From NCBI GenBank assembly GCA_964429995.1, contig CAYSDY010000002.1:6019-70018 (forward strand): a stretch of 64,000 bases of DNA, given 5' to 3'. Shown piece by piece: positions 3,232-64,000 of this stretch; position 1 is the first letter of the stretch, and each line of letters begins with the position of its first letter. Both the position numbers and the translations under genes were made by a program. This stretch comes from an uncultured Methanosarcinales archaeon (lineage in GTDB: Archaea; Nanobdellota; Nanobdellia; Woesearchaeales; UBA583). The notes below the pieces were generated by a model, which did not search any database, was not told where the DNA came from, and saw only the letters and a list, made by a program, of their open reading frames with translations.

Positions 3232-5826
3232 ATGAAAAAAATATTTCTTGTTGCTCTGTTTTTTTTGGCATTTTTTTTAAACAATATAAATGCCTTTGAA
3301 ATTTTGGATCAAAATTATAATCCTAAAATTTATTTTACTTTAGGTAATGATAATGTGATCGTAAGAAGTGATGCTAATTATTCAAATCTTACAATAAATT
3401 ATAAGATTTATAGTACCTACAAACAGGCTGTGTATAATTTTTCTTCATGTTCTTTAAAGTTTTGTTCATTTTTTAACATTTCTGATATGATTGAGGAAAA
3501 TAATGATACGATAACAACATCTACAAGGTTTCAGATTAATGTTGCAGGCAAAAGTGAATATATGTATCTTGACATAGAGAACCCATCTTTTACATTAAGT
3601 AAAAGTAATCTTAATTTGACAACAAAAAAAGTAGATTTTTCATATTCATATTCAGATGTAACATCAAATGTTACAAGTGTAAAATTGTATGAGGTTTCAG
3701 GTTCAAACAATAATTTTATTGCTGAACTTATAAATACAAATAATTACAGCTTTACTCCATCTGAGCAGAAAAAATATACTTTTAAATTTGTAATCTATGA
3801 TTTGGCAGGAAATTTTGCAGAAAAGAGTGCAGAAGTTGATGTTTCTGATTTGTTTGCACCACAAATAACAGACTATTATGTGGTAAAGGATGGTAAGGAT
3901 TACAAGGTTACCTTTTCGGCACAGGATAACAACAAGATTTACAAATATGAACTTGTTCAGGATAGCTTTAAGGTTGAGGATGTTATAAACCTTAAAACAG
4001 TTTCTGAGAAAACAGTCACAGTTCCTTTTACAAGTGGAGAATTTATATTAAGGGTTTATGATGAAGACCTTAATTATAATTCTGTAAAGCTTGATCTTGG
4101 AATAAAAATATTAAACACATATTCATCAAAGTATTCTTCAAGCCAATATTTTAAGTTTACATCAAATGCTGATTCTTGTTATTTAAGTGAGCTTAATTCT
4201 AAAAAGAAAAACGAGCAATTTGATAAGAGTTCTGATGAGTTTAAATTAAAACTTGATATTAATGAAAATCTTGAAGTTGATGTTGGTTTTTACTGTGAAA
4301 AAACAGGTTTAAGAGAGTATTTTGAAAGAACATTTGTACATGATACAGAGGATCCAAAAAATACAGTTGTAAGCGGATATGCAACAGATGATGGCTTTTT
4401 AACAATTGAGTGGGATGAGGCAAAAGACAAACAGAGTGATGTTGAATACATGCTTTATAGGGATGATGAGAGAGTTTATCATGGTTCAAAACTAAGTTAT
4501 ACAGATTATAGGGTATTATATCCTTCTCAATACACATACTATGTTAAAGTTTATGATATTGCAGGAAACAATGTAAAATCAAATAAAATAACACTTATTC
4601 CTGTTAAAAAAAATATAAATTTTATGTTGTTATCTGATTTTGATGATAGGGTTTTTTCAAATGTTTTTAATTTTTCATTTCAGACAGAAAAAGATGTTAG
4701 GTTTTCAATATTTCATAAGTTTAATGATAATATTGTTTACAGTTATGATATAAATAAGACAAATGAGGATGCTTACACATTCGTTCTTAATTTAAAAGAA
4801 GGTCAGAACATAATACAGGTTGTCTTAAACGATAATTTTGGAAATAGCATTACAAAGGCATTTAATGTTATATACCAAAAGGAAGATCTTAAGCCTATTG
4901 TAAGTGATGAAGATGAAAATTTATATTCAGGTTACAAACAAGATAGCAATGGCAGTATTGTATCAGATAAAGATAAACTGAATGATTCAGGAATTGATTC
5001 TGTATCAAAAGAATTATCCAATGAGGATAAAAGATATGCTTTTTGGTTACTAGTTATTGTAATTATAATTGCAATAGCATATTTTATTCGTGTATTTGTG
5101 ATAGGATACGATATATTTGATATTGAAAAAAAAGTTCGTTCAAAAAGTAATAGATCTTATCTTGAAAGAAAAAAGAAATCAGTTTTGGATCAGAACCTTG
5201 CAAAGAACGTGAAAAGACCAAAAGATGAATTGTTAAGCAAAGAACTGATGATGGTTAAAAGACAGAGACTCTTAAGACAAAAAGAAATGAAAAAAGAAGA
5301 ATTACTCTTAAAAAGACGTGCAGAAAAAGATATGCAGGCAACATTAATGCACAAGCAAAAAATAGATGAGATAAATAATGCAAAAAAGCAAAACATTGAT
5401 ATGTTTAAACAGAACACTGATAAAAAAATATTTAGGCGTGATAATAAAAATAAAGAAGATTATGATCTTTTATTATCTAAAAAGAAAGATGAAATTTCAT
5501 TAAAAAATAAAGATGATGTAGCTAAAAGGGGATTGTTTGAAGATTTTAGTGCTTATATTAACAAAGTTAAAGGTCAAAGTGGATGGAATAGTTCTTCTGA
5601 ATACATACAAAAAGAAGAACCTGTAAAAGAGAAAAGTGCAAATGAAGATAAAAACCATGCAAAAGAAGAGAAAACTGAGCAGAAAGTTGCAAAGTTTGAT
5701 TTTAAGTCAGATTTTAACGATTACATAAACAAGATATTTGACAGGAAAAAAAGAAGAACATCAAAAGATGTAAAATCAATTGAAAGACAGATAGAAAGAG
5801 AGCTTGAAAGAATTGAGAAAGATTGA
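3232..5826 (+). CDS. large type-I membrane/surface protein (864 aa). It has a Sec signal peptide, a ~600 aa extracellular region, one C-terminal TM helix and a K/E/R-rich coiled-coil cytoplasmic tail.
   Basis: The N-terminus MKKIFLVALFFLAFFLNNINA is hydrophobic. The TM helix is WLLVIVIIIAIAYFIRVFVIGY near aa 630, followed by ~230 aa of charged low complexity. No recognisable enzymatic motif. Confidence 0.6.
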   Translation: MKKIFLVALFFLAFFLNNINAFEILDQNYNPKIYFTLGNDNVIVRSDANYSNLTINYKIYSTYKQAVYNFSSCSLKFCSFFNISDMIEENNDTITTSTRFQINVAGKSEYMYLDIENPSFTLSKSNLNLTTKKVDFSYSYSDVTSNVTSVKLYEVSGSNNNFIAELINTNNYSFTPSEQKKYTFKFVIYDLAGNFAEKSAEVDVSDLFAPQITDYYVVKDGKDYKVTFSAQDNNKIYKYELVQDSFKVEDVINLKTVSEKTVTVPFTSGEFILRVYDEDLNYNSVKLDLGIKILNTYSSKYSSSQYFKFTSNADSCYLSELNSKKKNEQFDKSSDEFKLKLDINENLEVDVGFYCEKTGLREYFERTFVHDTEDPKNTVVSGYATDDGFLTIEWDEAKDKQSDVEYMLYRDDERVYHGSKLSYTDYRVLYPSQYTYYVKVYDIAGNNVKSNKITLIPVKKNINFMLLSDFDDRVFSNVFNFSFQTEKDVRFSIFHKFNDNIVYSYDINKTNEDAYTFVLNLKEGQNIIQVVLNDNFGNSITKAFNVIYQKEDLKPIVSDEDENLYSGYKQDSNGSIVSDKDKLNDSGIDSVSKELSNEDKRYAFWLLVIVIIIAIAYFIRVFVIGYDIFDIEKKVRSKSNRSYLERKKKSVLDQNLAKNVKRPKDELLSKELMMVKRQRLLRQKEMKKEELLLKRRAEKDMQATLMHKQKIDEINNAKKQNIDMFKQNTDKKIFRRDNKNKEDYDLLLSKKKDEISLKNKDDVAKRGLFEDFSAYINKVKGQSGWNSSSEYIQKEEPVKEKSANEDKNHAKEEKTEQKVAKFDFKSDFNDYINKIFDRKKRRTSKDVKSIERQIERELERIEKD

Positions 5827-5852
5827 TTTAAAAATTTAATAAATAATTTTAT

Positions 5853-5884
5853 CCAATCTTTTTTATGTTACTTTATTTTTTTAT
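5853..5884. repeat. ~30-bp T-rich element CCAATCTTTTTTATGTTACTTTATTTTT, copy 1. It is a direct repeat of 7855-7882.
   Basis: The two copies match at about 28/30 positions, which is far above chance for this composition. Both lie just 3' of stop codons. Confidence 0.6.
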
Positions 5885-6094
5885 CTTTAAACTTTTTTCT
5901 TAATTTGTTTATAAAACTTGAATAAATTTTGCTATTAATATGTTGTTAGTGTTACTTAATGTTTTAAAAATTGATTTTTTTGACTATTAAATGTAGGTTT
6001 AATATTTATATTTTATGAAATCTATTTATTATTTAAAATAATCTAATTACTTACAACATCATTATTATCTTGTTATACATAAGTTATAGAAAAA

Positions 6095-6102
6095 TTTATA
6101 AT
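6095..6102 (+). promoter_or_regulatory. BRE/TATA-like element aaaaaTTTATAAT. The TATA begins exactly 29 nt upstream of the ATG of pilin-FGE paralog 1.
   Basis: The same aaaaatttataa motif sits at the same 29-nt spacing upstream of the paralogs at 9594 (TATA 9565-9572) and 63285 (63256-63263). This spacing implies leaderless or near-leaderless transcripts. Confidence 0.45.
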
Positions 6103-6123
6103 AAATAAATTTCAGTAATTGTT

Positions 6124-7587
6124 ATGTTAAAGAGTTCTCATCCTAAAAAATGTATATCACCAGTTGTAGCAACCGCTTTATTATTAGTTGTTGCAGTTAC
6201 AGCAGTTGTAGGTTTTCAAGGTTGGTTTGGAACGTATTCAACAAAGATTTTAAGCGGAGTTGAAAGTTCATCAGCAAATGATATTACAACTAGTAGAATA
6301 GAAACAATTGTTGGTAATAGTTTGTATATTAAAAATGACTATGATAATTTAACTATCAAAGACATAAAAGTCAATGGTTACAGTTGTTTTGATAGTGAAA
6401 CAAATTATTCTAAAGGAATATTAGAAATCAATATTACGGATTGTATAGTAAATTTGAATGTTAGTAATCCTGATGTTGTAGTTGTAACAGATAAGGGCTT
6501 GATTGAGAAAAAGGTTTATGTTAAGGATGTTATACAAACAGGTAGTGCTAGTTTGCCACCAGTAGATGGTTTAAGTTGTTCTTTAGATAGTGCTATTGTT
6601 GAGGAAGGTTCATCACATACATTTTATCTGTATGATAAACCATACAATAACTTAGCAGGATGCTCTGCGATTTCACAGGTAAGAACCTGTAATGATGGTA
6701 TATTAGATGGTATAAGTAATTATAGTTATGCAGTATGTAATGATAGCTTAGCACCAATGCAGGCTGGAGAGTGGGTGCTTGTATTTGCTAATTCAGATTT
6801 AGGTGTTAACAATGATTTTTATGTCATGAAATATGAGGCAAAATTTGTAGATACAGCAAGTAAAACACAGGATGCAACATATAAGGGTTGGCGATATGAT
6901 ACTGCTGGAGGTGATTTAAGTATAAGATCACATCCAACACCTGAACCAATAACATATATTACTCAGACTCAGGCAATTTCTGTATGTGCATCTTTAGGTA
7001 CAGGTTATAAACTTATAACTAGTGCTGAATGGGTAACAACAGCACGAGAAACAGAAAACAATACATACAATTGGAATAGTGGTACAATATATTCAGGAAG
7101 TATGTATAAGGGACATGGTGATAATGCACCAGTGGGTTTTTTATCTATTACTGATATAAATGATGGTTATATTGGAACAGGTGATAGTGGTATATCAGAC
7201 CAAAGAAGAACTTTAAAATTATATAATGGCGAAATAATATGGGATTTAGGAGGTAATGCATGGGAATGGAACAGTGATGTGTATAATAATGATGCAGAAA
7301 GTTCATTAGGAAAAAGTTCAAGTGGTTACTATGAATGGACATCTATAAGCTCATCCTATAATCATTTAAAACCATACAATACATCTTTAACATCATCTAA
7401 TGGAATTGGTCAAGTTTATGCTGATTCTAGTGGTGGTGCATATCCAAGCGGAATAGTACATGCTTTTATTTCTGGAGGTAGTTGTACGTTCTTAGGTACG
7501 TATGGTGGTCCTTTTTCCTTGTGTTTGGGCTATGCTCCTTCTTATGTGGGTCCTGAAGTAGGTTTTCGTTGCTCATATAATCCGTGA
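6124..7587 (+). CDS. pilin-FGE fusion protein, paralog 1 (487 aa). It combines an archaeal type IV pilin-like class III signal peptide, a pilin-like β-domain, and a C-terminal FGE-sulfatase/DUF323-like domain.
   Basis: N-terminus KKC|ISPVVATALLLVVAVTAVVGFQGWF is a class III (prepilin) signal plus hydrophobic helix. The C-terminal half carries FYVMKYEAKF, PITYITQTQAISVCASLGTGYKLITSAEWVTTAR, GNAWEWNSDVY and VGFRCSYNP, which match hallmark blocks of the FGE/SUMF1 fold. Confidence 0.7.
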   Translation: MLKSSHPKKCISPVVATALLLVVAVTAVVGFQGWFGTYSTKILSGVESSSANDITTSRIETIVGNSLYIKNDYDNLTIKDIKVNGYSCFDSETNYSKGILEINITDCIVNLNVSNPDVVVVTDKGLIEKKVYVKDVIQTGSASLPPVDGLSCSLDSAIVEEGSSHTFYLYDKPYNNLAGCSAISQVRTCNDGILDGISNYSYAVCNDSLAPMQAGEWVLVFANSDLGVNNDFYVMKYEAKFVDTASKTQDATYKGWRYDTAGGDLSIRSHPTPEPITYITQTQAISVCASLGTGYKLITSAEWVTTARETENNTYNWNSGTIYSGSMYKGHGDNAPVGFLSITDINDGYIGTGDSGISDQRRTLKLYNGEIIWDLGGNAWEWNSDVYNNDAESSLGKSSSGYYEWTSISSSYNHLKPYNTSLTSSNGIGQVYADSSGGAYPSGIVHAFISGGSCTFLGTYGGPFSLCLGYAPSYVGPEVGFRCSYNP

Positions 7588-7854
7588 TTTAAAATTTTTA
7601 ATGAGTAAATCTTTTTAAAAAAATTCTGGAATCGTTTGAAAAACTATTTGTGAGATTGTGGTAGTAATGCAGTTATTTAGATTAGGTAATAGATAAATAC
7701 TAACTCTTAATGCGAGTGATGAAGTAAGATTTGCACATTTTTGTAGAAAAAGTATAGAGTTTTGACATTTTAATATACAAATTTTTAAAGAGAATTTAGT
7801 AAAAGTATTGTTTATATTGGATAATAAGAAACCTTTTGCTTTAGTTGTATTTAG

Positions 7855-9593: not shown

Positions 9594-11036
9594 ATGTATT
9601 CTGGTAATAAAAATATAAAATGCATATCTCCAATTATAGCAACAGCCTTATTGTTAGTTGTAGCTGTAGTTGCAGTTGTTGGTTTTTCATTTTGGTTTGA
9701 GGATTATTCATCTAAAATTTCAAGTAATGTTGAAACATACTCCTCACAAAAGGGTTCTTCTGTTAATATAGAAGCTGTTGTTGGAGATAGTTTGTATATT
9801 AAAAATTCTGGTGATAATGTTACTGTAAAAAATGTTAAAGTTAATGGATTTGATTGTTTGAATAATGATACTGTTTATCAGGAAGGATTTTTTGAAATAA
9901 ATATTAGTTTGTGTATTGATAATCTTAATGTTTCTAATCCTGATGTGCTAATAGTTACAGATAAAGGATTGGTTGAAAAGAAAATATATGTAAAGAATGT
10001 TGTAAATAGTGTTTCTTATGATTGTGTTTTAAATGGTCAAACTATTTTGAATGGTTCTTCTTCTGTTTTTTATAAATATGACAAACCTTACAATAGTGTA
10101 TCAGGGTGTTCTGTAATGTCACAGGAAAGGACATGTAATAATGGAAATCTAAATGGTACATCTGATTATACTTATACAGAGTGTAACGATAGTTTGGCCC
10201 CAAGCCAAGGTGGTGAGTGGTTATTGGTTTTAGGTAATGATGATTTGGGAACAGAAGATTTTTATGTTATGAAATATGAAGCAAAATTTGCAAATATTGC
10301 AAGTAAAACATTTGATGAAGCAAGTGGAGTTTGGCAATATGATAATGCTGGTGGAGATTTGAGTATAACATCAGGCCCTTTAAATGAACCAATAGCATAT
10401 ATTAGTCAAGAGCAAGCTGGTCTTGCATGTTCTTTATTGGGAGATGGTTATAAATTGATAAATCGTTCTGAATGGGTGACTATTGGAAGAGAAATTGAAA
10501 ATATTGCTTATAATTGGGATAGTGGTCAAGTTTATTCAGGTAAATTATATACAGGTCATAGTGATAGAGGTCCCTCTTATGCCTTGCCTGTTTCTGATGT
10601 TGATGATGGTTATGTAGGTACAGGTAATTCTGCACTCTCTGGTATTGATCAAAGAAGAACATTAAAATTGCGTAGTGATGAATTAATATGGGATTTATCA
10701 GGTAATTTATGGGAATGGAATAGTGATGTATTTGAAACAAATGAAGAAAGTTCGTTAGGAACATCTCCTATTGATTGGATGCAATGGACAGAGATAGATT
10801 CATCATACGATTACTTAAAACCTTATAACACATCGCTTACATCTACTAACGGAATAGGACGAGTTAAACCAACATCATCTAATGCTATTCCTAGTGGTAC
10901 AGTTCATGCTTTTGCTTCAGGAGGTGATTGGAATCGTGTTAGTGATACAGGATTTTTTGCATTGTTCTTAGGTTATTCTCCAACAATTTCAATGTTTATG
11001 TCTGATACTACTTTTCGTTGTACATATAATCCATAA
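9594..11036 (+). CDS. pilin-FGE fusion protein, paralog 2 (480 aa)
   Basis: N-terminus KNIKC|ISPIIATALLLVVAVVAVVGFSFWF. The C-terminal domain has FYVMKYEAKF, PIAYISQEQAGLACSLLGDGYKLINRSEWV, GNLWEWNSDVF and TFRCTYNP. The six-frame ORF from 9462 is an upstream read-through; the start is set at the Met that matches the paralogs. Confidence 0.7.
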   Translation: MYSGNKNIKCISPIIATALLLVVAVVAVVGFSFWFEDYSSKISSNVETYSSQKGSSVNIEAVVGDSLYIKNSGDNVTVKNVKVNGFDCLNNDTVYQEGFFEINISLCIDNLNVSNPDVLIVTDKGLVEKKIYVKNVVNSVSYDCVLNGQTILNGSSSVFYKYDKPYNSVSGCSVMSQERTCNNGNLNGTSDYTYTECNDSLAPSQGGEWLLVLGNDDLGTEDFYVMKYEAKFANIASKTFDEASGVWQYDNAGGDLSITSGPLNEPIAYISQEQAGLACSLLGDGYKLINRSEWVTIGREIENIAYNWDSGQVYSGKLYTGHSDRGPSYALPVSDVDDGYVGTGNSALSGIDQRRTLKLRSDELIWDLSGNLWEWNSDVFETNEESSLGTSPIDWMQWTEIDSSYDYLKPYNTSLTSTNGIGRVKPTSSNAIPSGTVHAFASGGDWNRVSDTGFFALFLGYSPTISMFMSDTTFRCTYNP

Positions 11037-14982: not shown

Positions 14983-15411
14983 ATGGTTTTAAATAAAAAA
15001 GCAATAAGTCCGGTAGTGGCTACAGCTCTGCTTTTAGTAGTTGCTGTTGTTGCAGTTGTAGGATTCCAAAGTTGGTTTACTACATACCAGAGTGGAATAA
15101 ACACAAAGGTTGAACAGCAGTCAAACGCTGGTTCAGTTTTAACAATTGAAAGATTAGAATCAAGTGCTAATGGTACTTTGTATTTGAAAAATGCAGGAAC
15201 AGAAAATGTTACAGTTTCATCATTTAAAGTTTTAAAAGATGGAGCAACACAGTGTGATGATTCTGGCTTAACAACAGTTGTTGCAGGTAACAGTGTTGAG
15301 GAACTATCTGGTTCAGGTGCTTGTGATGTTGCTCTTGTTTCAGGTTTGGCATACGATGTTGTTGTTGTTACAAACGTTGGAGTTTTCCAGGCAACAAAAA
15401 TTGCAAGATAA
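14983..15411 (+). CDS. archaeal type IV pilin (class III signal peptide), candidate major pilin of the adjacent pilus locus
   Basis: MVLNKKA|ISPVVATALLLVVAVVAVVGFQSWF is followed by a G/S/T/V-rich β-domain (LYLKNAGTENVTVSSFKV...). This is the same N-terminal module as the FGE-fusion paralogs. Confidence 0.7.
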   Translation: MVLNKKAISPVVATALLLVVAVVAVVGFQSWFTTYQSGINTKVEQQSNAGSVLTIERLESSANGTLYLKNAGTENVTVSSFKVLKDGATQCDDSGLTTVVAGNSVEELSGSGACDVALVSGLAYDVVVVTNVGVFQATKIAR

Positions 15412-15433
15412 AAATCTTGTATAAACAATAAAA

Positions 15434-15841
15434 ATGATTTACAGGAAAGGTTTGGTTTCAATAGCCACCTTTTCTTTTGTTCTTATTCTGATGATTTTTG
15501 TCTTAGGTTTTTCTTATTATGTTTACGATTTAAATAGAAGTTTTTTTATGGAAAAAGATATTGAGAAGGATATGTTTAAGTCAATGCTTGATTTTAGAAC
15601 ACAGGTTGTGTTTATGCATTCATGTAATAATTCATCGGTTACATATAGAAATTCACAATTAATGGAAGGGTTTTTGTTTAATGTAACAGATTCAAAATTT
15701 ACTGCTGTGTATTCTGATGCTGACATAAGGATTGAAAAAAACATTACCATGTATGGAATGAAATTTTGTGATAATTTTGTATTTAATCCTATAGTAGATC
15801 AGATTGTAATATATAATGGGACATGTATTAGCATTATTTGA
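15434..15841 (+). CDS. minor pilin-like protein (class III-like N-terminus RKG|LVSIATFSFVLILMIFVL)
   Basis: A short charged N-terminus with K-G is followed by a ~20-aa hydrophobic helix. The gene is first in a run of five such small genes upstream of the pilus ATPase. Confidence 0.45.
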   Translation: MIYRKGLVSIATFSFVLILMIFVLGFSYYVYDLNRSFFMEKDIEKDMFKSMLDFRTQVVFMHSCNNSSVTYRNSQLMEGFLFNVTDSKFTAVYSDADIRIEKNITMYGMKFCDNFVFNPIVDQIVIYNGTCISII

Positions 15842-15887
15842 TAGTGATTACATTTATTTATTATTTCAAAGCTTGAATCTTTAGTAT

Positions 15888-16364
15888 ATGTTATTCTATA
15901 AAAACAGAAAAGGATTATCTGAAATAATTGCATTTATATTACTCACTTTTCTTATAGTTACAGGTTCTACTTTAGTTTTTTATTTTGTTAAGGATTATGT
16001 GGATGAAGAAGTGTTTAAAATAGATCATATGAAAATGCAGGATAATATGAAAAATATTAACATGAATATAGGCCGTATAAAAAATGTTGATTCATCAGAT
16101 TTTTCTTTTAGCCTTAGTTTTAATACTGGCCTTTTATATTTTCAAGAAGGTATGATGAAGTATTATTCATTGATGGATTTTAATGGTATTGATTATTGTT
16201 TTAACAGTATATGTCATGTTGGAATAATTGGCAAAGAGATGATGTATTTTAACATGAGTTCAGATTATGTTTTTGAGCCTGAATTAAAACTTACTCCTGG
16301 TAATTATCTTATTACATTAAGAAATAATAAAAATGAAAAAAAGATACATGTTACAATCAAGTAA
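15888..16364 (+). CDS. minor pilin-like protein (NRKG|LSEIIAFILLTFLIV)
   Basis: Class III-like signal with Glu at +3, then a hydrophobic helix. Confidence 0.45.
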   Translation: MLFYKNRKGLSEIIAFILLTFLIVTGSTLVFYFVKDYVDEEVFKIDHMKMQDNMKNINMNIGRIKNVDSSDFSFSLSFNTGLLYFQEGMMKYYSLMDFNGIDYCFNSICHVGIIGKEMMYFNMSSDYVFEPELKLTPGNYLITLRNNKNEKKIHVTIK

Positions 16365-16848
16365 TAATCATGTTAAGGCATATATACAGATAGATACTGC
16401 ATTTATAGTGTTAATGTTTATTTTGTTTTTTACATTTGTAGTATATAGGGTTGAATCTTTTAAAAACACATATAATTATGAAATTGAATTCTTAAATCTT
16501 AAGAGTCAATCCGATGATATTTGTTTTATGTTTTCGTATACATCAGGTGATAAATATGACTGGGAAAATAATTTTGAAAATGTTTCAATGATAGGTTTTT
16601 TAAATGATGATAATTCAGGACTTAACATGTCAAAAGTTGAATTTTTAAATGATGATGTGTATTTTGATTTTATTGATAAACTTGGAGTTAAAGATCATTT
16701 ATATGTTAGATTTTCTTATATAAACTCTACTCTTATTAAAGAGTTTGGTTTTGCATCTTATAATTATCCTGTTGTGTTTTCAAACTCTATATGTTTTATT
16801 GACTTTGAAGATGAAATAGTAAAGATGGAGGTGAAATTATGGAAATAA
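16333..16848 (+). CDS. minor pilin-like protein (HVKA|YIQIDTAFIVLMFILFF)
   Basis: Same architecture as its neighbours. It overlaps the neighbouring gene ends. Confidence 0.4.
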   Translation: MKKRYMLQSSNNHVKAYIQIDTAFIVLMFILFFTFVVYRVESFKNTYNYEIEFLNLKSQSDDICFMFSYTSGDKYDWENNFENVSMIGFLNDDNSGLNMSKVEFLNDDVYFDFIDKLGVKDHLYVRFSYINSTLIKEFGFASYNYPVVFSNSICFIDFEDEIVKMEVKLWK

Positions 16849-17261
16849 AAAACAGAAAATCACAAATTACAATAATTGAAACAATTTTTATGATATTGTT
16901 GTTTTTTATATTTGCAGGATATTTATATGGAAATGATTTTAATTTTTTTTATAATGATTATGATTATAACAGCATTGATACTGCTATGATATCAATCTAC
17001 AAATTAAATAATTTTAGGGTTCCTGTGTTTGAAGAAGATATGAATGTTTCTTTAGTAACTGCTGACTGGAATTCATTAAAGGATTTATTGGATATGCAAT
17101 TTTCTGAATATACGGTTTCACTTTTGGATTTGGATGATGAAAAAATGGTTATAAATAGCACAACAAAAAATGTTGCTTATTATTCTTATGATGTATTTTT
17201 TTTTATTGATGATTACAATAATGTTTCAGGTTTTAGATATTTAAGAATGAGGGTGTATTAA
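16839..17261 (+). CDS. minor pilin-like protein (NRKS|QITIIETIFMILLFFIFAG)
   Basis: K-S|Q-I-T-I-I-E is a class III-like signal. It overlaps the neighbouring ORFs (translational coupling). Confidence 0.45.
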   Translation: MEIKNRKSQITIIETIFMILLFFIFAGYLYGNDFNFFYNDYDYNSIDTAMISIYKLNNFRVPVFEEDMNVSLVTADWNSLKDLLDMQFSEYTVSLLDLDDEKMVINSTTKNVAYYSYDVFFFIDDYNNVSGFRYLRMRVY

Positions 17262-17656
17262 TGAAAATGGTTTTAAAATTTAATAATAAGTCACAGATAA
17301 TAGTTCTTGCGTGTGCTTTTCTTTTTTTGATATTTTTATATATCTATTCTTTAGAGACAATGAATTCTTATATAAATATGCCACCTAAAACTACTATATT
17401 GCAGGTTGTTGCTGATGAAGTTTGTTATCTTGCTTATAGAAGTTCTGGGGAGGATTTAGATTTAAGATTGAAGATGGTTAATTCAAGTTTATTGGAATAT
17501 TGTAATAGTGAGGGTTTATTGTGCAGTTTTGACATAATACCTTATGGGGAAGTTCCTCCTTTAGGAAATTGGTCTTTGCTTAATTATTCTTATTATAATT
17601 TTTCATTGTTTGTTTCTGATTCAACTTTTAATTTTACAAGAGAATTTAAATGTTAA
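17261..17656 (+). CDS. minor pilin-like protein (NNKS|QIIVLACAFLFLIFL)
   Basis: Class III-like signal. It lies directly upstream of the ATPase and overlaps it by 7 nt. Confidence 0.45.
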   Translation: MKMVLKFNNKSQIIVLACAFLFLIFLYIYSLETMNSYINMPPKTTILQVVADEVCYLAYRSSGEDLDLRLKMVNSSLLEYCNSEGLLCSFDIIPYGEVPPLGNWSLLNYSYYNFSLFVSDSTFNFTREFKC

Positions 17657-19629
17657 AAATGGATATAAAGAAAATAAGTAAACTTATACAGAATGCAAAG
17701 AAAAATTATGTAGAGAAAAGTGATGATTTTAATATGTATCTTTCTGGAAGAAAACAGTTTAGTTTTCCTCTCATGCAGAATAGACCTTCTAATTCTTTGC
17801 CTAAGTTAGAACAGAATGATGTTAGTTCTGATGGGTCTGTTTCACAACAGGTTAATGCACTGCAGGATGATAATGTTTATCAGGATTTTAATCAGGCAAG
17901 TTCGCCTAACAATGCATTCCAAAATCAGCCAATGTATCCGCCTTCATATTATCCACAGGTTAATGTTATAGGAGGACCTACAAATGGTGCACCAATAAAT
18001 ATTATTGCTAAAAATTATATAGATCCTTTTAGCCTTGAAGATGAGGAAGAGGCTGTTAATGTTAAGAAAAAAAAGAAACATGAGCTTGCAGATGTACCAA
18101 TAAATCTTATTAAAGAATCTTCAACTGATTGGGAGCCTATAAATTATAGAGGAGTAAATGATAGTTATGCACTGTATAAAATGTCAAATGTATTCATAAA
18201 GTTTGATGAGGAACATCAGAAACTTCTTTATAAGATAGTTGAGCCTGAATTATCAGCAGAAGATCAAAAAGTTCTTTTGGAACTTAAAAAAGGTTTCATG
18301 TATGTTTTTGAAAAAATCTCAACAAAAGATTTGGAAAATTCTTCAACTGATTTAATAAACAGAGGTATTAAGGAACTTTCAAAAAAATATGGTATAAAAA
18401 TAAGTGATGAGTCTTTTACAAAGATTGCTTATTATCTTGAAAGGGATTTTTTAGGTCTTGAACAGTTAGAACCTATAATGCATGATAAGTACATAGAGGA
18501 TATTTCATGTGATGGATTAGGAGTTCCTGTTTTTGTTAACCACTTAAAGTATGGACCTATTGAAGTTAACAGGAAATTTGATGATGCAAATAAATTAAAT
18601 TCTTTTATTGTAAAGCTTGCACAAAAATCTAATCAAGAAGTTTCATTATCAAGACCTATATTACAGGGAGCTTTGCCTGATGGTTCAAGAATTGAGGCTA
18701 TTTATGGTAAGGAGGTTTCCGAAAAAGGTTCTTCTTTTACAATAAGAAAGTTTAGAGCTGAACCGTTCACCCCTATACATCTTATAGAATTTGGAACGAT
18801 GCCTCCACTTTTACTTGCTTATTTATGGCTTGCAGTAGAAAATAAAAAATCCATACTTGTGTCTGGTGGTACTGCAACAGGAAAGACAACAATACTTAAT
18901 GCTTTATCATTATTTGTGCCGCCTGCTGCAAAGATAGTTTCTATTGAAGATACTCCAGAAATAAACTTACCACACGAACATTGGCTTCCATTAATATCAA
19001 GAGAATCGCAGACACGTTCTGAGGTTTCAATGTTTGACCTACTTAAAGCTTCGTTAAGAGAGAGACCAGATTACATAATAGTTGGTGAGATAAGAGGTGC
19101 TGAGGCTGCAATTTTATTTCAAGGTATGGCAACAGGACATGCAGGGCTTGGTACAGTTCATGCAGAAAAGTTTACAGATCTTGTTAATCGTATGACAATA
19201 AAACCTATTGAATTACCAAAACAACTGATTACAGAACTTAACATATGTATATTTATGAATAGGGTTAAAGTTAAAGATAACATGGTAAGAAGAGCTGCTA
19301 GTGTTGTTGAGGTTGTTGATTATGATTCAAGAAAAGATACTTTTGAAACAAATGATTTTATGACATTTTTACCAGTTGAAGACTCTTTTGATTTTAGTGA
19401 AAAATCGTTTGTGATAAAACATCTTCTTGAATTAAGAGGTGGTAAGGAAGAGGCCTTATGGAATGAAATAGAAAAAAGAAGAAGAATATTAGATATGATG
19501 TCAAAAAACTTTATAACTGAATTTGAAGATGTAAATGATATCATACAGTCGTATTACAAGGCTCCTTCCGAAATATTTGATTATCTTGAAAATTTTATAA
19601 GTTTGAAAAAAAATAAAAGTGAAGAATGA
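17650..19629 (+). CDS. type IV pilus/archaellum assembly ATPase (FlaI/TadA/VirB11 superfamily) with a ~250-aa Q/N/P-rich N-terminal extension
   Basis: Walker A is VSGGTATGKTTILNAL. Walker B/Asp box is RPDYIIVGEIRGAEA. The His-box region is GHAGLGTVHAE. The N-terminus (QQVNALQDDNVYQDFNQASSPNNAFQNQPMYPPSYYPQ) is low complexity. Confidence 0.85.
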   Translation: MLKMDIKKISKLIQNAKKNYVEKSDDFNMYLSGRKQFSFPLMQNRPSNSLPKLEQNDVSSDGSVSQQVNALQDDNVYQDFNQASSPNNAFQNQPMYPPSYYPQVNVIGGPTNGAPINIIAKNYIDPFSLEDEEEAVNVKKKKKHELADVPINLIKESSTDWEPINYRGVNDSYALYKMSNVFIKFDEEHQKLLYKIVEPELSAEDQKVLLELKKGFMYVFEKISTKDLENSSTDLINRGIKELSKKYGIKISDESFTKIAYYLERDFLGLEQLEPIMHDKYIEDISCDGLGVPVFVNHLKYGPIEVNRKFDDANKLNSFIVKLAQKSNQEVSLSRPILQGALPDGSRIEAIYGKEVSEKGSSFTIRKFRAEPFTPIHLIEFGTMPPLLLAYLWLAVENKKSILVSGGTATGKTTILNALSLFVPPAAKIVSIEDTPEINLPHEHWLPLISRESQTRSEVSMFDLLKASLRERPDYIIVGEIRGAEAAILFQGMATGHAGLGTVHAEKFTDLVNRMTIKPIELPKQLITELNICIFMNRVKVKDNMVRRAASVVEVVDYDSRKDTFETNDFMTFLPVEDSFDFSEKSFVIKHLLELRGGKEEALWNEIEKRRRILDMMSKNFITEFEDVNDIIQSYYKAPSEIFDYLENFISLKKNKSEE

Positions 19630-20627
19630 TAAAGGATCTCAAAAAGCAGGATACTAATAGTAAAAAGATTTTAACAAATGAAAGTCTTATTGAGAAATAT
19701 TGTCATTTTATGTATAGGATATATGGTCGTAAGCTTCTTTTAAATGAAAAATTTAGTAAGATTTTTTATAGAAATTTTTATAACAAAAAATATGAGAAAA
19801 TATTAAGTCAGGCAAATTTAAGATTGATTCCAGAAGAATATTTCATATCCATATTTATGAGTCTTTCTTTTTTTTTATTAGCTTCTATAGTCTTTTCTGT
19901 ATTATTATCTTTTACGCATCCAATATGGGCCATGTTATTGTTTTATATAGGTGTTTTTGGGGTTGCAGTTATTGGGATTTTTATGTATAATTATCCTGTT
20001 GTTACAGCAAAATCAAGGGGTAGTGAGGTTGATGCATCAATTCCTTATGTGCTACCATACATGAAAATATTGTCAAAAGAATTAAGTCTTGCAAAAATAA
20101 TAGATATAATTGATGATTTTCTTATATATAAGCAGATTAAGATAGAATTTCAAAGAATAAAGTATTACTATTCTGTTATGGGATACGATTTAAACAGTTC
20201 AATTAGGTCTGCTATGGAGAGTTGTCCTTCTAAAAATCTTTCTGATATGATGAACGATCTTGTAACAATTTCAAATTCAGGAGGAAACATATATACTTAT
20301 CTTGAAAGAAAACTTGAAAATCTTAATAAGGAAATAAACGCAATAGAAAGTAAAAGTATAGATACATTGCTTATATATTCTCAGATTTATGTAGTTATTC
20401 TACTTATTTCACCACTGTTTTATACCATAATGAGCTCTATACTTAACATGATAGATATAAGTGCTGCTGCAGGAGATTCTATTGCTGGTTCAGGTAGTGG
20501 AACAGGGGTTGTATCATCAATAGTTATGCTTTTGTTTTTTTTACCAATTGCTTATATAGCTTTTATGACACTTATATATTATTCAAAGCCACTTTATTCA
20601 AGGCTTGAGCCAATCAATGAAAAATGA
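19626..20627 (+). CDS. pilus platform membrane protein, TadB/TadC (T2SSF) family, first of two
   Basis: Several TM helices flank a cytoplasmic T2SSF-like helical domain (SCPSKNLSDMMNDLVTISNSGGNIYTYLERKLENL...). The start overlaps the ATPase stop (ATGA). Confidence 0.7.
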   Translation: MIKDLKKQDTNSKKILTNESLIEKYCHFMYRIYGRKLLLNEKFSKIFYRNFYNKKYEKILSQANLRLIPEEYFISIFMSLSFFLLASIVFSVLLSFTHPIWAMLLFYIGVFGVAVIGIFMYNYPVVTAKSRGSEVDASIPYVLPYMKILSKELSLAKIIDIIDDFLIYKQIKIEFQRIKYYYSVMGYDLNSSIRSAMESCPSKNLSDMMNDLVTISNSGGNIYTYLERKLENLNKEINAIESKSIDTLLIYSQIYVVILLISPLFYTIMSSILNMIDISAAAGDSIAGSGSGTGVVSSIVMLLFFLPIAYIAFMTLIYYSKPLYSRLEPINEK

Positions 20628-21472
20628 ACAGTAATCTTAGTAATATTGAGGAAAAAGTAAGACTGGTTTTGCTTATTTTGGCATTTATATCTTTTATTTT
20701 AGGAATATTTTATACTATAAGTCATATAAACTATCCTAAAAACATAAATGTTGTTTTGATAATGCCTTTTATATTTTTTCTTGTGCCATATCTTTTTTTA
20801 GGATTGTTTAAGGTAAAAAGAATAGAAGCAAAAATGCATATAATACCTAGGTTTTTAAGAGATATTGTTGATAATGTTGATAGTGGAATGGATCTTATAT
20901 CATCTATTAAAAGTACAAGTGAAAATGAATATTCAATATTAAATGAAGATATTGAAAAATTGGTTAATCAATTATCATGGGGTGTTGATTTTAATGAGGC
21001 ATTGTCAAAGTTTGCTGATAATGTTGGAGATTACAATTTAAAGAGAGATTTTAGACTTGTAATTGAGGCAAGGGCTGTAGGTGGGCATGTTGATCAGATA
21101 TTAAGAGAGTTGTCATCAAAAATAGAAATAGACAATTTAAGAGGTAAGGAACGTAAGAGCAATCTTGCATCAAATACATTTACTGGTTATATTTCATTTG
21201 TAATATTTCTTTTCATAATAATACTTGTTTATAACAACTTGTTTTTGGGTATTGCAAGTAGTTTTTCTGCAACACAAACATTTGCACAAATTCAAGATAC
21301 AAATAATATGATGAATATTAATCTTACTTTTCTTATACTGCTTGCTTATGAACTTGCAATACTTTCAGGGTTTTTGTTTGGACTTATGCAGGATAATAAC
21401 ATAATAAGTGGGGCTCCGCATGTTGTTATACTTGTTGTTATAGTTTTTGTAGGTTTTTTCTTTTTTATTTAA
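20624..21472 (+). CDS. pilus platform membrane protein, TadC (T2SSF) family, second of two
   Basis: T2SSF-like domain: DSGMDLISSIKSTSENEYSILNEDIEKLVNQLSWGVDFNEALSKFADNVGDYNLKRDFRLVIEARAVGGHVDQILRELS. It is ATGA-overlapped with the previous gene. Confidence 0.7.
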   Translation: MNSNLSNIEEKVRLVLLILAFISFILGIFYTISHINYPKNINVVLIMPFIFFLVPYLFLGLFKVKRIEAKMHIIPRFLRDIVDNVDSGMDLISSIKSTSENEYSILNEDIEKLVNQLSWGVDFNEALSKFADNVGDYNLKRDFRLVIEARAVGGHVDQILRELSSKIEIDNLRGKERKSNLASNTFTGYISFVIFLFIIILVYNNLFLGIASSFSATQTFAQIQDTNNMMNINLTFLILLAYELAILSGFLFGLMQDNNIISGAPHVVILVVIVFVGFFFFI

Positions 21473-52394: not shown

Positions 52395-52464
52395 TTTAAT
52401 TTTTTATTATTTGAATGATATTATTTTTAGTAATATTTATGAACAGAGAAGTTGTTACTGGTGT

Positions 52465-52992
52465 ATGGTACAAAATATGTATAGTAAAACAGTAAAGGGT
52501 ATTGTTACAGCAGGAGCATTTGCTCTTGGAGTGTTATATGGTGGCAATTTAGCAGAGGCTAGAGAAGTTTATTTAAAGGCATCTAGTGAAGTTGATAAAT
52601 TATCTTTAGAATATGTTGTAAAGGCAAATAAAGGGAAAACAATAGTTGGTGCTTTAAATACTCCTTTACCAGAGGGTAGTTTAGAGAAGGGTTTAGTGAT
52701 AGTAAAAGCTAAACCAGGAGAAGTAGAAAGTTTTAGTAAGAAACTTGAAGGTTTATTGAGTAAAAGTGAAGCTATAGGAGTTCATACAGATATGATGAAT
52801 GCTTATAGTGGAGGTAATCCTGATGAATTAATTTATGTTTTAGGTGGAACAAGTAATGCTGATAAGAAACCAACTACAAAGTTATATGTTACATTTGAAG
52901 AAGAGAAAACAACCTTAAAAGAGAAAGGAGGCGGTGAAGGAGGCTCTGGCGGTTCTGGAGGCTCTGGCGGAGGCAATGGAGGGAGTTATTAA
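52465..52992 (+). CDS. small secreted protein A1 (176 aa) with a (GGS)n-rich C-terminal tail. It is the tandem paralog of 54535-55062.
   Basis: MVQNMYSKTVKGIVTAGAFALGVLYGG... ends ...KEKGGGEGGSGGSGGSGGGNGGSY. It is ~97% nucleotide-identical to copy A2. The six-frame ORF starts earlier at 52411, but homology with A2 begins at MVQNMY. Confidence 0.55.
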   Translation: MVQNMYSKTVKGIVTAGAFALGVLYGGNLAEAREVYLKASSEVDKLSLEYVVKANKGKTIVGALNTPLPEGSLEKGLVIVKAKPGEVESFSKKLEGLLSKSEAIGVHTDMMNAYSGGNPDELIYVLGGTSNADKKPTTKLYVTFEEEKTTLKEKGGGEGGSGGSGGSGGGNGGSY

Positions 52993-53053
52993 ATTTTTTT
53001 ATTATTGTTGAGTTAATGTTAATTTAAATAAATACCTTTTTTGTTAAGTTTTT

Positions 53054-54391
53054 ATGAAAATTATTATAAAACTTTTTTTTTATTTTTATTTATTTTTTTT
53101 TTGTGTAGATATTGTTCGATCTTACACTTATAGTATTGGAGGTTCTTCTTTTGATGGGATAGGAGTTAGTGCTAATATTGCTTTTAACAGTAATGGAGGA
53201 GATTTTACTGTTGTATCCAATAATTTATTTTTTTATGGTATTACGAATGCATGTGTTATTCCAACTTGTGGATCTTCTGTGGATTCTTGTTTTATTTTTG
53301 TATTAAATTCAAATTATAGAGATATATTTTGGTATTCTGATATTAGAGAAGATTATATAGGGAACTCTAGAAAATATAAATTTCCTAATGAACTAAAAAA
53401 CGAAAACAAATGTTTACTTACATATCAAAACAAAATGTTAAGTTCTAATTTGGAGCCTTTTTCTATATACATAAACTCTCCTCGTCCAGACACTTATAAA
53501 GGCATCACCTACCCACCAGGCAGATACACATTTTCAAACATTGGAAGTGTCATTCCAAATTGGGAGAGCTATTATCTTGCAAACTACTATTACATGAAAG
53601 CAAACTTAAAATTTGAATTGTTAAATGATGCTGTTGTTGTTTCATCTCAAACAAAACAGATAGTTGCAAAAGATACTCCAATTAGTATTGAGAGTGACTT
53701 AACAAATTTTATCAATAGCAAAAAAACAGACATAGAAAACCTATTAAAATCAGGAGTTAATCCAGATAAGATAAAAATGAGAATAGTAGGAACTCCTACA
53801 GATGCAAAATGTCCAGCAGTTGGGATTTTAGAGCAATTTATTGACATTAAAACTGAGGTTGACAAGCTTGTTAAAACACAGGATTGTACTATAAGTTATC
53901 AAAGTGGAGCAATTATTTCTAATGCAGATGAGGCACTTTACAGCCCATCAGAAATGGATGTTTTGGTTGTAGGAACCTTATTAAAGCATCATGATAATGG
54001 TGAAGAAGAAATTATTAAACATTTTTATCCATCATCAAGCCTTGTTAATACTTATGAGGATTACAATTACATAATTGCTAAAAAAGTTGCTGTTCCTGTT
54101 GATTTAGAAATGCAAATAAGACATGAGTTAGATAGAATGAAGGATGAAAACATAGATTATGGAATTTTTTCAGCAGTAATAATAGGAGAACCTATTGATG
54201 ATGAATGTGTAAAAGGAAAAACAGGTTTTGAGCATGAAATAATCAGCAATTACATAATTCCAAAACCAGAAGAAAAACCAACTTATGATGATTATGAACC
54301 TTATACAAATCCTATAAACAAGCAAAGATATATTGTTGATGGTGCGTGTGATTCTAAAATTACATTTAATAAGGAACAACAAAGGATTTAA
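53054..54391 (+). CDS. secreted protein B1 (445 aa), truncated paralog of the 1043-aa protein B2
   Basis: Signal MKIIIKLFFYFYLFFFCVDIVRS. Residues ~150-443 are nearly identical to B2 (53501-54385 vs 55559-56443, with 100% stretches of at least 219 nt). It stops at ...NKEQQRI where B2 continues. Confidence 0.6.
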   Translation: MKIIIKLFFYFYLFFFCVDIVRSYTYSIGGSSFDGIGVSANIAFNSNGGDFTVVSNNLFFYGITNACVIPTCGSSVDSCFIFVLNSNYRDIFWYSDIREDYIGNSRKYKFPNELKNENKCLLTYQNKMLSSNLEPFSIYINSPRPDTYKGITYPPGRYTFSNIGSVIPNWESYYLANYYYMKANLKFELLNDAVVVSSQTKQIVAKDTPISIESDLTNFINSKKTDIENLLKSGVNPDKIKMRIVGTPTDAKCPAVGILEQFIDIKTEVDKLVKTQDCTISYQSGAIISNADEALYSPSEMDVLVVGTLLKHHDNGEEEIIKHFYPSSSLVNTYEDYNYIIAKKVAVPVDLEMQIRHELDRMKDENIDYGIFSAVIIGEPIDDECVKGKTGFEHEIISNYIIPKPEEKPTYDDYEPYTNPINKQRYIVDGACDSKITFNKEQQRI

Positions 54392-54534
54392 TGGTGTATT
54401 TGTCAATAAGTAAATAATATCTAATTTTTTTTAAAGTGTTTTATAATGAATTTGGTACTATTGTTGTTTATTTAATATTCCTAATTTTTCCGATTTTTAG
54501 TAATATTTATAAATAAAGAAGTTGTTACTGGTGT

Positions 54535-55062
54535 ATGGTACAAAATATGTATAGTAAAACAGTAAAGGGTATTGTTACAGCAGGAGCATTTGCTCTTGGA
54601 GTGTTATATGGTGGCAATTTAGCAGAGGCTAGAGAAGTTTATTTAAAGGCATCTAGTGAAGTTGATAAATTATCTTTAGAATATGTTGTAAAGGCAAATA
54701 AAGGGAAAACAATAGTTGGTGCTTTAAATACTCCTTTGCCAGAGGGTAGTTTAGAGAAAGGTTTAGTGATAGTAAAAGCTAAGCCAGGAGAAGTAGAAAG
54801 TTTTAGTAAGAAACTTGAAGGTTTATTGGGTAAAAGTGAAGCTATAGGAGTTCATACAGATATGATGAATGCTTACAGTGGAGGTAATCCAGATGAAGTA
54901 ATTTATGTTTTAGGTGGAAAAAGTAATGCTGATGAAAAACCAACTACAAAGTTATATGTTACATTTGAAGAAGAAAAAACAACCCTAAAAGAGAAAGGAG
55001 GCGGTGAAGGAGGCTCTGGCGGTTCTGGTGGTTCTGGCGGAGGAGATGGAGGCCATTTGTAA
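54535..55062 (+). CDS. small secreted protein A2 (175 aa) with a GGS-rich tail
   Basis: See A1. The offset between copies is 2070 bp. Confidence 0.55.
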   Translation: MVQNMYSKTVKGIVTAGAFALGVLYGGNLAEAREVYLKASSEVDKLSLEYVVKANKGKTIVGALNTPLPEGSLEKGLVIVKAKPGEVESFSKKLEGLLGKSEAIGVHTDMMNAYSGGNPDEVIYVLGGKSNADEKPTTKLYVTFEEEKTTLKEKGGGEGGSGGSGGSGGGDGGHL

Positions 55063-55144
55063 TATTTAGTTGGTAAAAAATTTTTATTTTTACTACCTTA
55101 AAATTAAAAACAATATAAATAAAATTGTTTTTTAATATTATTTT

Positions 55145-63284: not shown

Positions 63285-64000
63285 ATGATAACAATTTATT
63301 ATTCTAAAAAGTGCATATCACCAGTTGTAGCTGTTGCTTTATTATTAGTTGTAGCAGTTATAGCAGTTGTAGGTTTTCAAAACTGGTTTGATACGTATTC
63401 AACAAATATTTTAAGTGATGTTGAGAGTTCATCAGCAAATGATGTTAGAACCAGTAGAATAGAAACAATTGTTGGAAACAGTTTGTACATAAAAAATGAT
63501 TATGATAATTTAACAATTAAAGATATAAAAGTCAATGGTTACAGTTGTTTTGATAGTGAAACAAATTATTCTAAAGGAATATTAGAAATCAATATTACGG
63601 ATTGTATAGTAAATTTGAATGTTAGTAATCCTGATGTTGTAGTTGTAACAGATAAAGGCTTGATTGAGAAGATGGTTTATGTTAAAAATGTTAATGTTAC
63701 ACAAACAGGTGCACCAACAACAGTGGGATTAAGTTGTTCTTTAAATGGTACTACTATTGCACATGATTCATCTTATACATTTTACGAATATGATAAACCA
63801 TATAATAATCTAGCAGGATGCTTAGCGATTTCACAATTAAGAACATGTAATAATGGAACGTTGAATGGGTCAGATAACTATAGTTATGCAATATGTAATG
63901 ATAGCTTAGCACCAAGCGAAGGTGGAGAATGGGTACTTGTGTTTGCTAATTTAGATTTAGGTGTTAACAATGATTTTTATGTAATGAAATATGAAGCAAA
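63285..64000 (+). CDS. pilin-FGE fusion protein, paralog 3 (3'-truncated by the window edge)
   Basis: MITIYYSKKC|ISPVVAVALLLVVAVIAVVGFQNWF. The first ~130 aa are near-identical to paralog 1, including a ~125-nt stretch of 100% nucleotide identity. The sequence runs into the FYVMKYEAK block at the window end. Confidence 0.7.
   Translation, partial: MITIYYSKKCISPVVAVALLLVVAVIAVVGFQNWFDTYSTNILSDVESSSANDVRTSRIETIVGNSLYIKNDYDNLTIKDIKVNGYSCFDSETNYSKGILEINITDCIVNLNVSNPDVVVVTDKGLIEKMVYVKNVNVTQTGAPTTVGLSCSLNGTTIAHDSSYTFYEYDKPYNNLAGCLAISQLRTCNNGTLNGSDNYSYAICNDSLAPSEGGEWVLVFANLDLGVNNDFYVMKYEA

Follow-up and report, generated by a model that had tools for sequence, protein, structure and literature searches.

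Three genes in a 64,000-nucleotide stretch of contig CAYSDY010000002.1 from an uncultured archaeon (the whole stretch is called the window here) join an archaeal pilin N-terminus to a C-terminal head built on the scaffold of the proteins that diversity-generating retroelements (DGRs) rewrite, and the family to which these genes belong contains proven DGR targets. We regard it as probable that the window copies are modular archaeal type IV pilins of the DGR type, orphaned or fossilized, that most likely act as adhesins of fixed specificity, while their relatives are rewritten by a DGR. The combination is that of a DGR variable protein and a modular type IV pilin; both kinds of protein are known, and no new principle is involved. 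The three fusion genes (paralogs 1-3, Table 1) have the reading frames and starts that a first-pass annotation of the window had given them, and the called start of paralog 2 agrees with database protein P0012 at 100% identity. The window has about 28% G+C and carries archaeal EF-1alpha and S10 genes, and the homologues of its proteins are labelled Nanoarchaeota or Woesearchaeota, which identifies the source as a DPANN archaeon.

Clues to a DGR came from the relatives. A close homologue, P0005, has a reverse transcriptase (RT) domain, close homologues differ from one another mainly between the motifs SGG and GFRC, and the family consensus between these motifs alternates fixed and free positions. 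About 160 loci were fetched with a family profile built from a 45-sequence alignment (A1, which also served for all conservation counts and as AlphaFold input), and each locus was scanned for repeat pairs that differ at a single kind of base. Template repeat/variable repeat (TR/VR) pairs were found at 20 of them; the final ~115 nt of a gene with a formylglycine-generating enzyme (FGE) domain form one member of each pair, and 85-100% of the mismatches are adenines in the other copy. These are L082, L168, and L004, the clearest archaeal examples, and 17 others. At L082, the target is 78% identical to paralog 1 and the order is RT, target, a conserved open reading frame (ORF) named ORF123, an Avd-like ORF, and TR; the TR translates as SGGNWNNGANAGSFALNLNNAPSNLNNNIGFRC and differs from the VR at 20 sites, 17 of which are A. 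L168, from a Nanoarchaeia metagenome-assembled genome (MAG), repeats this gene order with an intact 361-aa RT, a Pfam bAvd match, and a pilin-type target (KQAISPVISVILLL...), and adenines make up 24 of its 26 mismatches. L004 comes from CP060218, a complete Woesearchaeota genome; one TR there pairs with two pilin-type targets, and the mismatches lie at A in 10/12 and 11/13 cases. The L082 TR has 11 Asn codons, and these coincide one for one with the 11 highest-entropy positions among residues 446-483 of the family alignment.

The cassette is not always intact or adjacent. About a third of the archaeal pilin-type genes with adequate flanks lie in a cassette, and the VR of one remote target, L002, compared with the L082 TR on another contig, has 15 of 16 mismatches at A with no local Avd, ORF123, or TR and just an RT stub. 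The RTs of L082 and L001 lack 39 residues, including the SYA-R-GKG motif; they are dead, and cassette decay is common in this clade. L001 is an RT-adjacent orthologue with no TR in its 12.5 kb, on a contig that stops 175 nt past the gene; the L082 TR cannot be fitted to its VR. Two further RT relatives, P0122 and P0130, were considered and set aside: their contigs are short and lack an A-biased TR/VR pair, and the P0122 contig has no FGE-type gene. Among the bacterial relatives, 43 of 165 FGE-domain genes start with the prepilin motif GFT[LI][VI]ELL, and several of the 43 are DGR targets (L023, L069, L095/L097, L113, and L117).

Several observations on these loci stand on their own. ORF123, a conserved ORF of about 123 aa (MSKKLSVLELPIYKE...) with no Pfam family, separates the target from Avd in each of the three archaeal cassettes (L082, 11647-12018; L168, 12514-12885; L004, 20408-20773) and may be an unrecognized DGR accessory protein. 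In L082, L001, and L004, the RT frame enters the target ORF without a stop, so that gene callers fuse the two, as in the 790-aa P0005. A perfect 13-nt tandem repeat, GAACAGAAATCAG, separates the 3′ end of the RT from the pilin gene in L001 (10766-10859, 7.2 copies) and is also present upstream of the pilin start in L082 and L002. FGE-type heads are common in MAGs of Bdellovibrionales, Bacteriovoracaceae, and Oligoflexales, in candidate phyla radiation (CPR) bacteria, and in DPANN archaea (loci L009, L014, L015, L027, L043, L044, and L049-L052 among others), lifestyles that are all predatory or episymbiotic. Lastly, a conserved noncoding element directly follows the VR stop codon at cassette-linked and remote targets alike (L082, 11465-11640; L002, 11774-12000; L168, 12334-12510), and a counterpart follows paralog 1 in the window. 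It comprises two hairpins and the blocks TGTGGAATCGTTTG, CTTAATGCGAG, and TTTAATAT..AAATTTTTAAA; Rfam has no family for it or for the TR region. Possibly this DGR clade recognizes its targets in cis through this element.

The head itself was assigned by profile and by fold. FGE-sulfatase model PF03781 scores 29.8 bits on paralog 1 against a gathering cutoff of 23.3 (E=6e-7) and is weak on paralog 2 (13.7 bits). Searched against the PDB, the family profile finds the DGR protein TaqVP (5vf4, E=1e-5) and, at the N-terminus, an archaeal filament subunit (8fk7, E=6e-7), with no other chain matched at E<=0.01. In the AlphaFold model of paralog 1 (mean pLDDT 82.8, above 90 throughout the head), a long helix at the N-terminus leads into a beta domain, and a middle domain rich in Cys connects this to a large domain at the C-terminus. 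For the model, Foldseek ranks TaqVP first (E=5.5e-8) together with Mtd (1e-5), followed by PvdO and EgtB of the FGE fold; weak matches to human FGE were also obtained. The head is the standard FGE-subclass C-type lectin scaffold of DGR variable proteins and not an odd FGE enzyme domain. The first-pass annotation had correctly called an FGE-type fold but did not draw the connection to DGRs. The motif blocks on which it had relied are all in place (FYVMKYEAKF, PITYITQ and PIAYISQ, GNAWEWNSDVY and GNLWEWNSDVF, and both C-terminal strings), except that paralog 1 reads GFRCSYNP where [VT]FRC had been given.

Across the 45 family members, only C88, C288, and C483 are invariant, C107 is nearly so, and the stretch from residue 390 to 482 has no conserved cysteine. 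The segment of the head that is spatially equivalent to human FGE 322-369 is the hypervariable VR. In the human enzyme, that segment includes the catalytic residues Cys336 and Cys341. Because the family has no conserved cysteine there, C454 and C467 of paralog 1 are not active-site residues; one of the template Asn positions is occupied by C467, and where 37 of 45 members keep a Trp, paralog 1 has C454. The divergence of the last 40 residues between paralogs 1 and 2 is real, as had been noted, but it is the divergence of a VR, and its explanation as the loss of two cysteines in a shift from catalytic to noncatalytic protein is unsupported. The suggested action on host surface sulfatases is likewise unsupported. 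The role in surface binding proposed alongside it, as a lectin or adhesin, is supported as a prediction from sequence and model. The fusion genes ought not to be named formylglycine-generating enzymes in databases.

The N-terminal half of the architecture rests on profile and model as well. Taken as single sequences, the fusions fall below threshold with TIGR02537 (15.1 versus 20 bits) and likewise with PF07790, although the stand-alone pilin of the window passes TIGR02537 at 28.3 bits; the family profile, by its match to 8fk7, and the AlphaFold model recover the relationship. In the model, a helix (residues 13-43) precedes beta strands (57-130), and the N-terminal part matches the Sulfolobus AAP pilin (8q30) and a Sulfolobus islandicus pilin (6nav) with E about 2e-3 and a probability of 1.00. 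Residues 8-83 of paralog 1 are 53% identical to the stand-alone pilin (E=1e-11); this likeness covers the helix and the first beta strands only, so the earlier statement that the fusions share the entire beta module of that pilin goes too far. Taken together, a class III signal and archaeal pilin N-terminus with a helix/beta-sandwich pilin fold are supported by sequence and model, with predicted cleavage at KKC/ISPVVATALLLVVAV... in paralog 1. The Cys at -1 of this site (KKC/ISP) is found in all three paralogues (6151-6153, 9621-9623, and 63312-63314) and their closest orthologues, and the residue is Ala or Gly in the stand-alone pilin and, mostly, in more distant family members.

Machinery that could export and assemble such proteins is encoded 7 kb from a fusion gene, in a type IV pilus operon (14983-21472) of pilin, small pilin-like ORFs, T2SSE ATPase, and two T2SSF proteins. 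At least two of the small ORFs, 15434 and 15888, start with RKG-L followed by a hydrophobic stretch and are, on these features, candidate minor pilins. None of the three fusion genes lies inside the operon. A Peptidase_A24 homologue adjoins the orthologue in L002. Elsewhere, the archaeal pilin module is joined to other heads, namely Lcl_C/DUF1566, a ConA-like lectin, Fibrinogen_C, DUF285, Peptidase_M26_N, and Gly_rich_2.

For the window copies, the question is whether anything still rewrites them. Sensitive blastn of the 64-kb window, queried with the individual VRs and the L082 TR, yielded chance matches only, and tblastn with the RT, Avd, and ORF123 of L082 and L168 found nothing in the window or at the related loci L162 and L163. 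L163 is the paralog 3 locus of a 99.8% identical strain and carries P0243, a variant of database protein P0006; in the 10 kb beyond paralog 3 it has ELP3, FmrO, RFC, and CDC48 and no RT, Avd, ORF123, or TR. P0006 and P0012 lie on one 226,401-bp contig, of which the window is thus a part and on which an RT search found no match. Downstream of paralog 1, the post-VR element has lost the hairpin nearest the stop codon and has a mismatch in the other, and it is followed not by ORF123, Avd, or TR but by grpE on the minus strand; after paralogs 2 and 3, the element is absent.

The VRs themselves look settled. Their lengths, counted as residues between SGG and [AS]P[ST], are 18, 17, and 16 in the three paralogues, and a single TR therefore cannot serve all of them. 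In paralog 1, NNY codons occupy 9 of the 11 template-Asn positions, next to changes that are not of the DGR type: the codons ACG and GAA, which are not derivable from AAY, a 3-nt insertion, and W454C at a nonadenine site. Non-A sites are changed at a rate of 1-3% in cognate TR/VR pairs and 22-42% when the window genes are set against heterologous TRs. Paralogs 2 and 3 give an odds ratio (OR) of about 2 for adenine sites, which is not significant and is like that of L005, an orphan paralogue in a complete genome with a live DGR. Exact copies of the proteins recur, paralog 1 on three contigs and paralog 2 on four, and the VR of paralog 3 is identical on seven contigs and in the 99.8% identical strain, where T77N is the sole difference between P0006 and its variant. 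The sequence GGTTTTCGTTGCTC, an initiation of mutagenic homing (IMH)-type 3′ end of the VR, is kept in paralogs 1 and 3. On these observations, the window copies are probably cassette-less with static VRs. A separate matter is L162 (Ga0334887_1013069), which corresponds to window positions 3489-7475 and is 100% identical up to about 7204; past that point, it has the 3′ end of another paralogue (that of P0002) and then a different downstream gene. Hypervariation was rejected as the cause since the divergence sets in about 260 nt before the VR, many of the changes are synonymous, and the variant is not A-mutated; L162 reflects recombination within the head scaffold or else a chimeric assembly.

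A number of points weigh against reading these genes as orphans and as pilins. Just about 74 kb was inspected for a cassette, from a genome of unstated size, and DGRs can act on remote targets. Consensus assemblies can mask population-level VR variation. Paralog 1 keeps an IMH-like GGTTTTCGTTGCTCA along with part of the post-VR element, and against heterologous templates it has an excess of changes at adenine sites (19/25 versus 19/87, OR 11, p=1e-6) that resembles that of a live target set against a foreign template (L168 VR versus L082 TR, OR 19.5). On the pilin side, a Cys at -1 is atypical for a prepilin peptidase site, and a Peptidase_A24 homologue (prepilin peptidase) was not found within the 64-kb window. 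Much of this would fit live remote targets, with a cassette elsewhere in the genome still rewriting at least one paralogue, most plausibly paralog 1, as happens in close relatives at L002. We nonetheless hold continued rewriting to be unlikely when the 226-kb contig has no RT match, the unequal VR lengths exclude a common TR, the hairpin nearest the VR of paralog 1 is destroyed, codons underivable from AAY occupy Asn positions, and identical proteins recur across samples. A quite different account, in which an ordinary family of lectin-headed pilins underwent normal paralogue divergence with no retroelement history, was the view of the first-pass annotation. The missing cassette and the lack of significant A-site bias in paralogs 2 and 3 agree with it, but it is very unlikely given that the variable positions are exactly the template Asn codons, that orthologues 78% identical to paralog 1 sit in a cassette, and that a remnant of the cassette-type post-VR element follows paralog 1.

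Two other alternatives concern what the proteins do rather than how they arose. The class III signal may serve export and membrane anchoring only, as for the sugar-binding proteins of the Sulfolobus "bindosome", and would then mark surface lectins rather than pilus subunits. Archaeal nonpilin proteins with class III signals exist, 487 residues with two extra domains are bulky for a filament subunit, and the fusion genes lie outside the pilus operon. We consider such anchoring rather unlikely in view of the 53% identity between the N-terminal ~80 residues and the operon's own pilin, the match of the modeled helix and beta domain to AAP and S. islandicus pilins, and the entry of bacterial modular pilins of similar size into pili (PMC8179133). 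An active formylglycine-generating or sulfoxide-synthase-like enzyme displayed at the surface would agree with the Pfam match and with the weak matches to human FGE. It is extremely improbable: residues 390-482 hold no conserved cysteine, a finding on which the catalytic reading was ruled out, the counterpart of the human active-site segment is the hypervariable VR, DGR variable proteins stand above enzymes in the fold search, and TvpA, with the same fold, has no FGE activity (PMC5758913).

If the window copies are orphan modular pilins, their life cycle can be sketched. The class III signal, pilin helix, and beta module would direct export by the window's own pilus machinery, with a prepilin peptidase presumably cleaving after Cys10, and the helix would insert in the pilus, most likely at the tip by analogy with bacterial modular pilins (PMC8179133), or anchor the protein elsewhere on the cell surface. 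The last ~38 residues of the head would be the VR that binds a ligand, putatively on a host cell. In relatives, the adjacent cassette of RT, target, ORF123, Avd, and TR rewrites this VR through adenine-specific mutagenic retrohoming, which would yield hypervariable adhesins, plausibly for the attachment of DPANN episymbionts to their hosts. The diversity seen among the window copies would be inherited from past DGR activity and would since have been shaped by ordinary mutation and possibly by recombination between paralogues.

Table 1. Coordinates of the fusion genes, their parts, and the pilus genes of the window
Feature	Position	Strand	Basis or remark
Paralog 1, 487 aa	6124..7587	+	ORF call, Pfam, pilin models, family profile, AlphaFold model, Foldseek
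Paralog 1, class III leader	residues 1-10
Paralog 1, hydrophobic pilin helix	residues 13-43
Paralog 1, pilin beta domain	residues 57-130
Paralog 1, Cys-rich middle domain	about residues 147-215
Paralog 1, FGE-type C-lectin head	residues 216-487
VR-equivalent of paralog 1, residues 448-484 (AFISGG...GFRCS)	7465..7575	+
Degenerate post-VR element of paralog 1, about 240 nt homologous	7588..7830	+	homology to L082, L002, L168
Paralog 2, 480 aa (P0012)	9594..11036	+	architecture of paralog 1 repeated; 57% identity to paralog 1
VR-equivalent of paralog 2	about 10911-11021	+	adenine bias not significant; no post-VR element
Stand-alone archaeal type IV pilin, 142 aa	14983..15411	+	N-terminal module in common with fusions
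Five small ORFs	15434..17656	+	no Pfam match
Type IV pilus assembly ATPase	17650..19629	+	T2SSE, E=1e-33
Two T2SSF platform proteins (PilC/TadC-like)	19626..21472	+
Paralog 3, N-terminal 238 of 483 aa (P0006)	63285..64000	+	remainder read from L163

Two other features of the window deserve mention. Directly upstream of paralog 1 (3232-5826) is a gene for an 864-aa protein that is probably a further surface protein: its N-terminus resembles a signal segment, and it has Ig-like domains (Big_13/Big_3_2), a transmembrane segment, and a long tail rich in Lys and Glu. Farther along, at 52423-55854, a tandem duplication of roughly 2.06 kb with 98% identity (52423-52722 paired with 54493-54792, and 53497-53796 with 55555-55854) runs across ORFs 52411-54391 and 54535-58276.

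DGRs are enriched in DPANN archaea and CPR bacteria, and the cellular context of their targets is mostly obscure. What is at stake is how these organisms locate their hosts and stay attached to them. A recurrent target class made of type IV pilins, which are archaeal pilins in DPANN and N-methyl prepilins in CPR, puts the hypervariable site on a tractable surface organelle and predicts which machinery exports the hypervariable head, and copies that have no cassette bear on how long DGR-generated specificities persist. It is tempting to go further and propose that DPANN archaea, and CPR bacteria in parallel, mount DGR-rewritable lectin heads on type IV pilins as a programmable device for host recognition, with cassette-less paralogues forming an archive of frozen specificities that could recombine with the live copy within the conserved head scaffold and so be swapped into it. 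This proposal is tentative, and we would sooner doubt it than rely on it; the L162 hybrid hints at such an exchange. If it were true, host choice would be governed by an antibody-like "diversify then archive" system.

No class of DGR targets is larger than that of the FGE-type C-lectin proteins (PMC5758913). DGRs are on record in Nanoarchaeota, Woesearchaeota, Pacearchaeota, and Nanohalobium, where they have been proposed to aid attachment, and both FGE-type DGR targets in DPANN and modular pilins in bacteria have been published. A "G-type pilin" domain appears among the rare VR-holding domains of one survey. No DGR linked to type IV or archaeal pilins was found in the searchable literature; the CPR/DPANN survey of Paul et al. 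2017, which is outside that scope, might mention pilin-type targets. The earlier assertion that no pilin with an FGE head had been described holds within the same literature, but in public databases, automated annotation has already given some family members the two labels "flagellin-like" and "FGE".

Known systems share one or another part of this design. TvpA of Treponema, TaqVP (5vf4) of Thermus, and Mtd of a Bordetella phage have the fold in common with the head, with a VR at the extreme C-terminus that is closed by an invariant GFRC-type strand, and the likeness extends to AAY-coded variable positions and, in members of the pilin-FGE family, to a cognate TR, RT, and Avd. The pilin-FGE proteins differ by adding an archaeal class III/pilin N-terminus and a stalk domain, by the gene order of their clade (RT, target, ORF123, Avd, TR), and, in the window copies, by the missing cassette. 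AvpA, the nanoarchaeal DGR variable protein of solved structure (PMC5006420), is likewise a DPANN DGR target of C-lectin fold with a proposed role between symbiont and host, but it is a 256-aa single domain of a non-FGE subclass, lacks a pilin module, has its VR in the interior of the protein, and belongs to a different family. Human FGE/SUMF1, EgtB, and PvdO share PF03781 and the overall fold with the head, which lacks the conserved active-site cysteine pair and is hypervariable in the corresponding segment. Among pilins, the bacterial modular type IV pilins such as PilB and PilC of S. sanguinis (PMC8179133) likewise graft a binding module onto a small pilin module that is probably exposed at the tip; that survey covers bacteria only, and its main text makes no mention of FGE heads or DGR diversification. 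Bacterial N_methyl and FGE-sulfatase fusions do exist, and several are DGR targets. A design of the same logic is found in the DGR-diversified type V pilins of Bacteroides (bioRxiv 10.1101/2024.11.15.621889), in which a carrier pilin bears a hypervariable tip adhesin, a C-terminal C-lectin head rewritten by a DGR. Those pili are derived from lipoproteins, assemble by strand exchange, and are unrelated to type IV and archaeal pilins, and their DGRs have been shown to be active, which is not so for the window copies.

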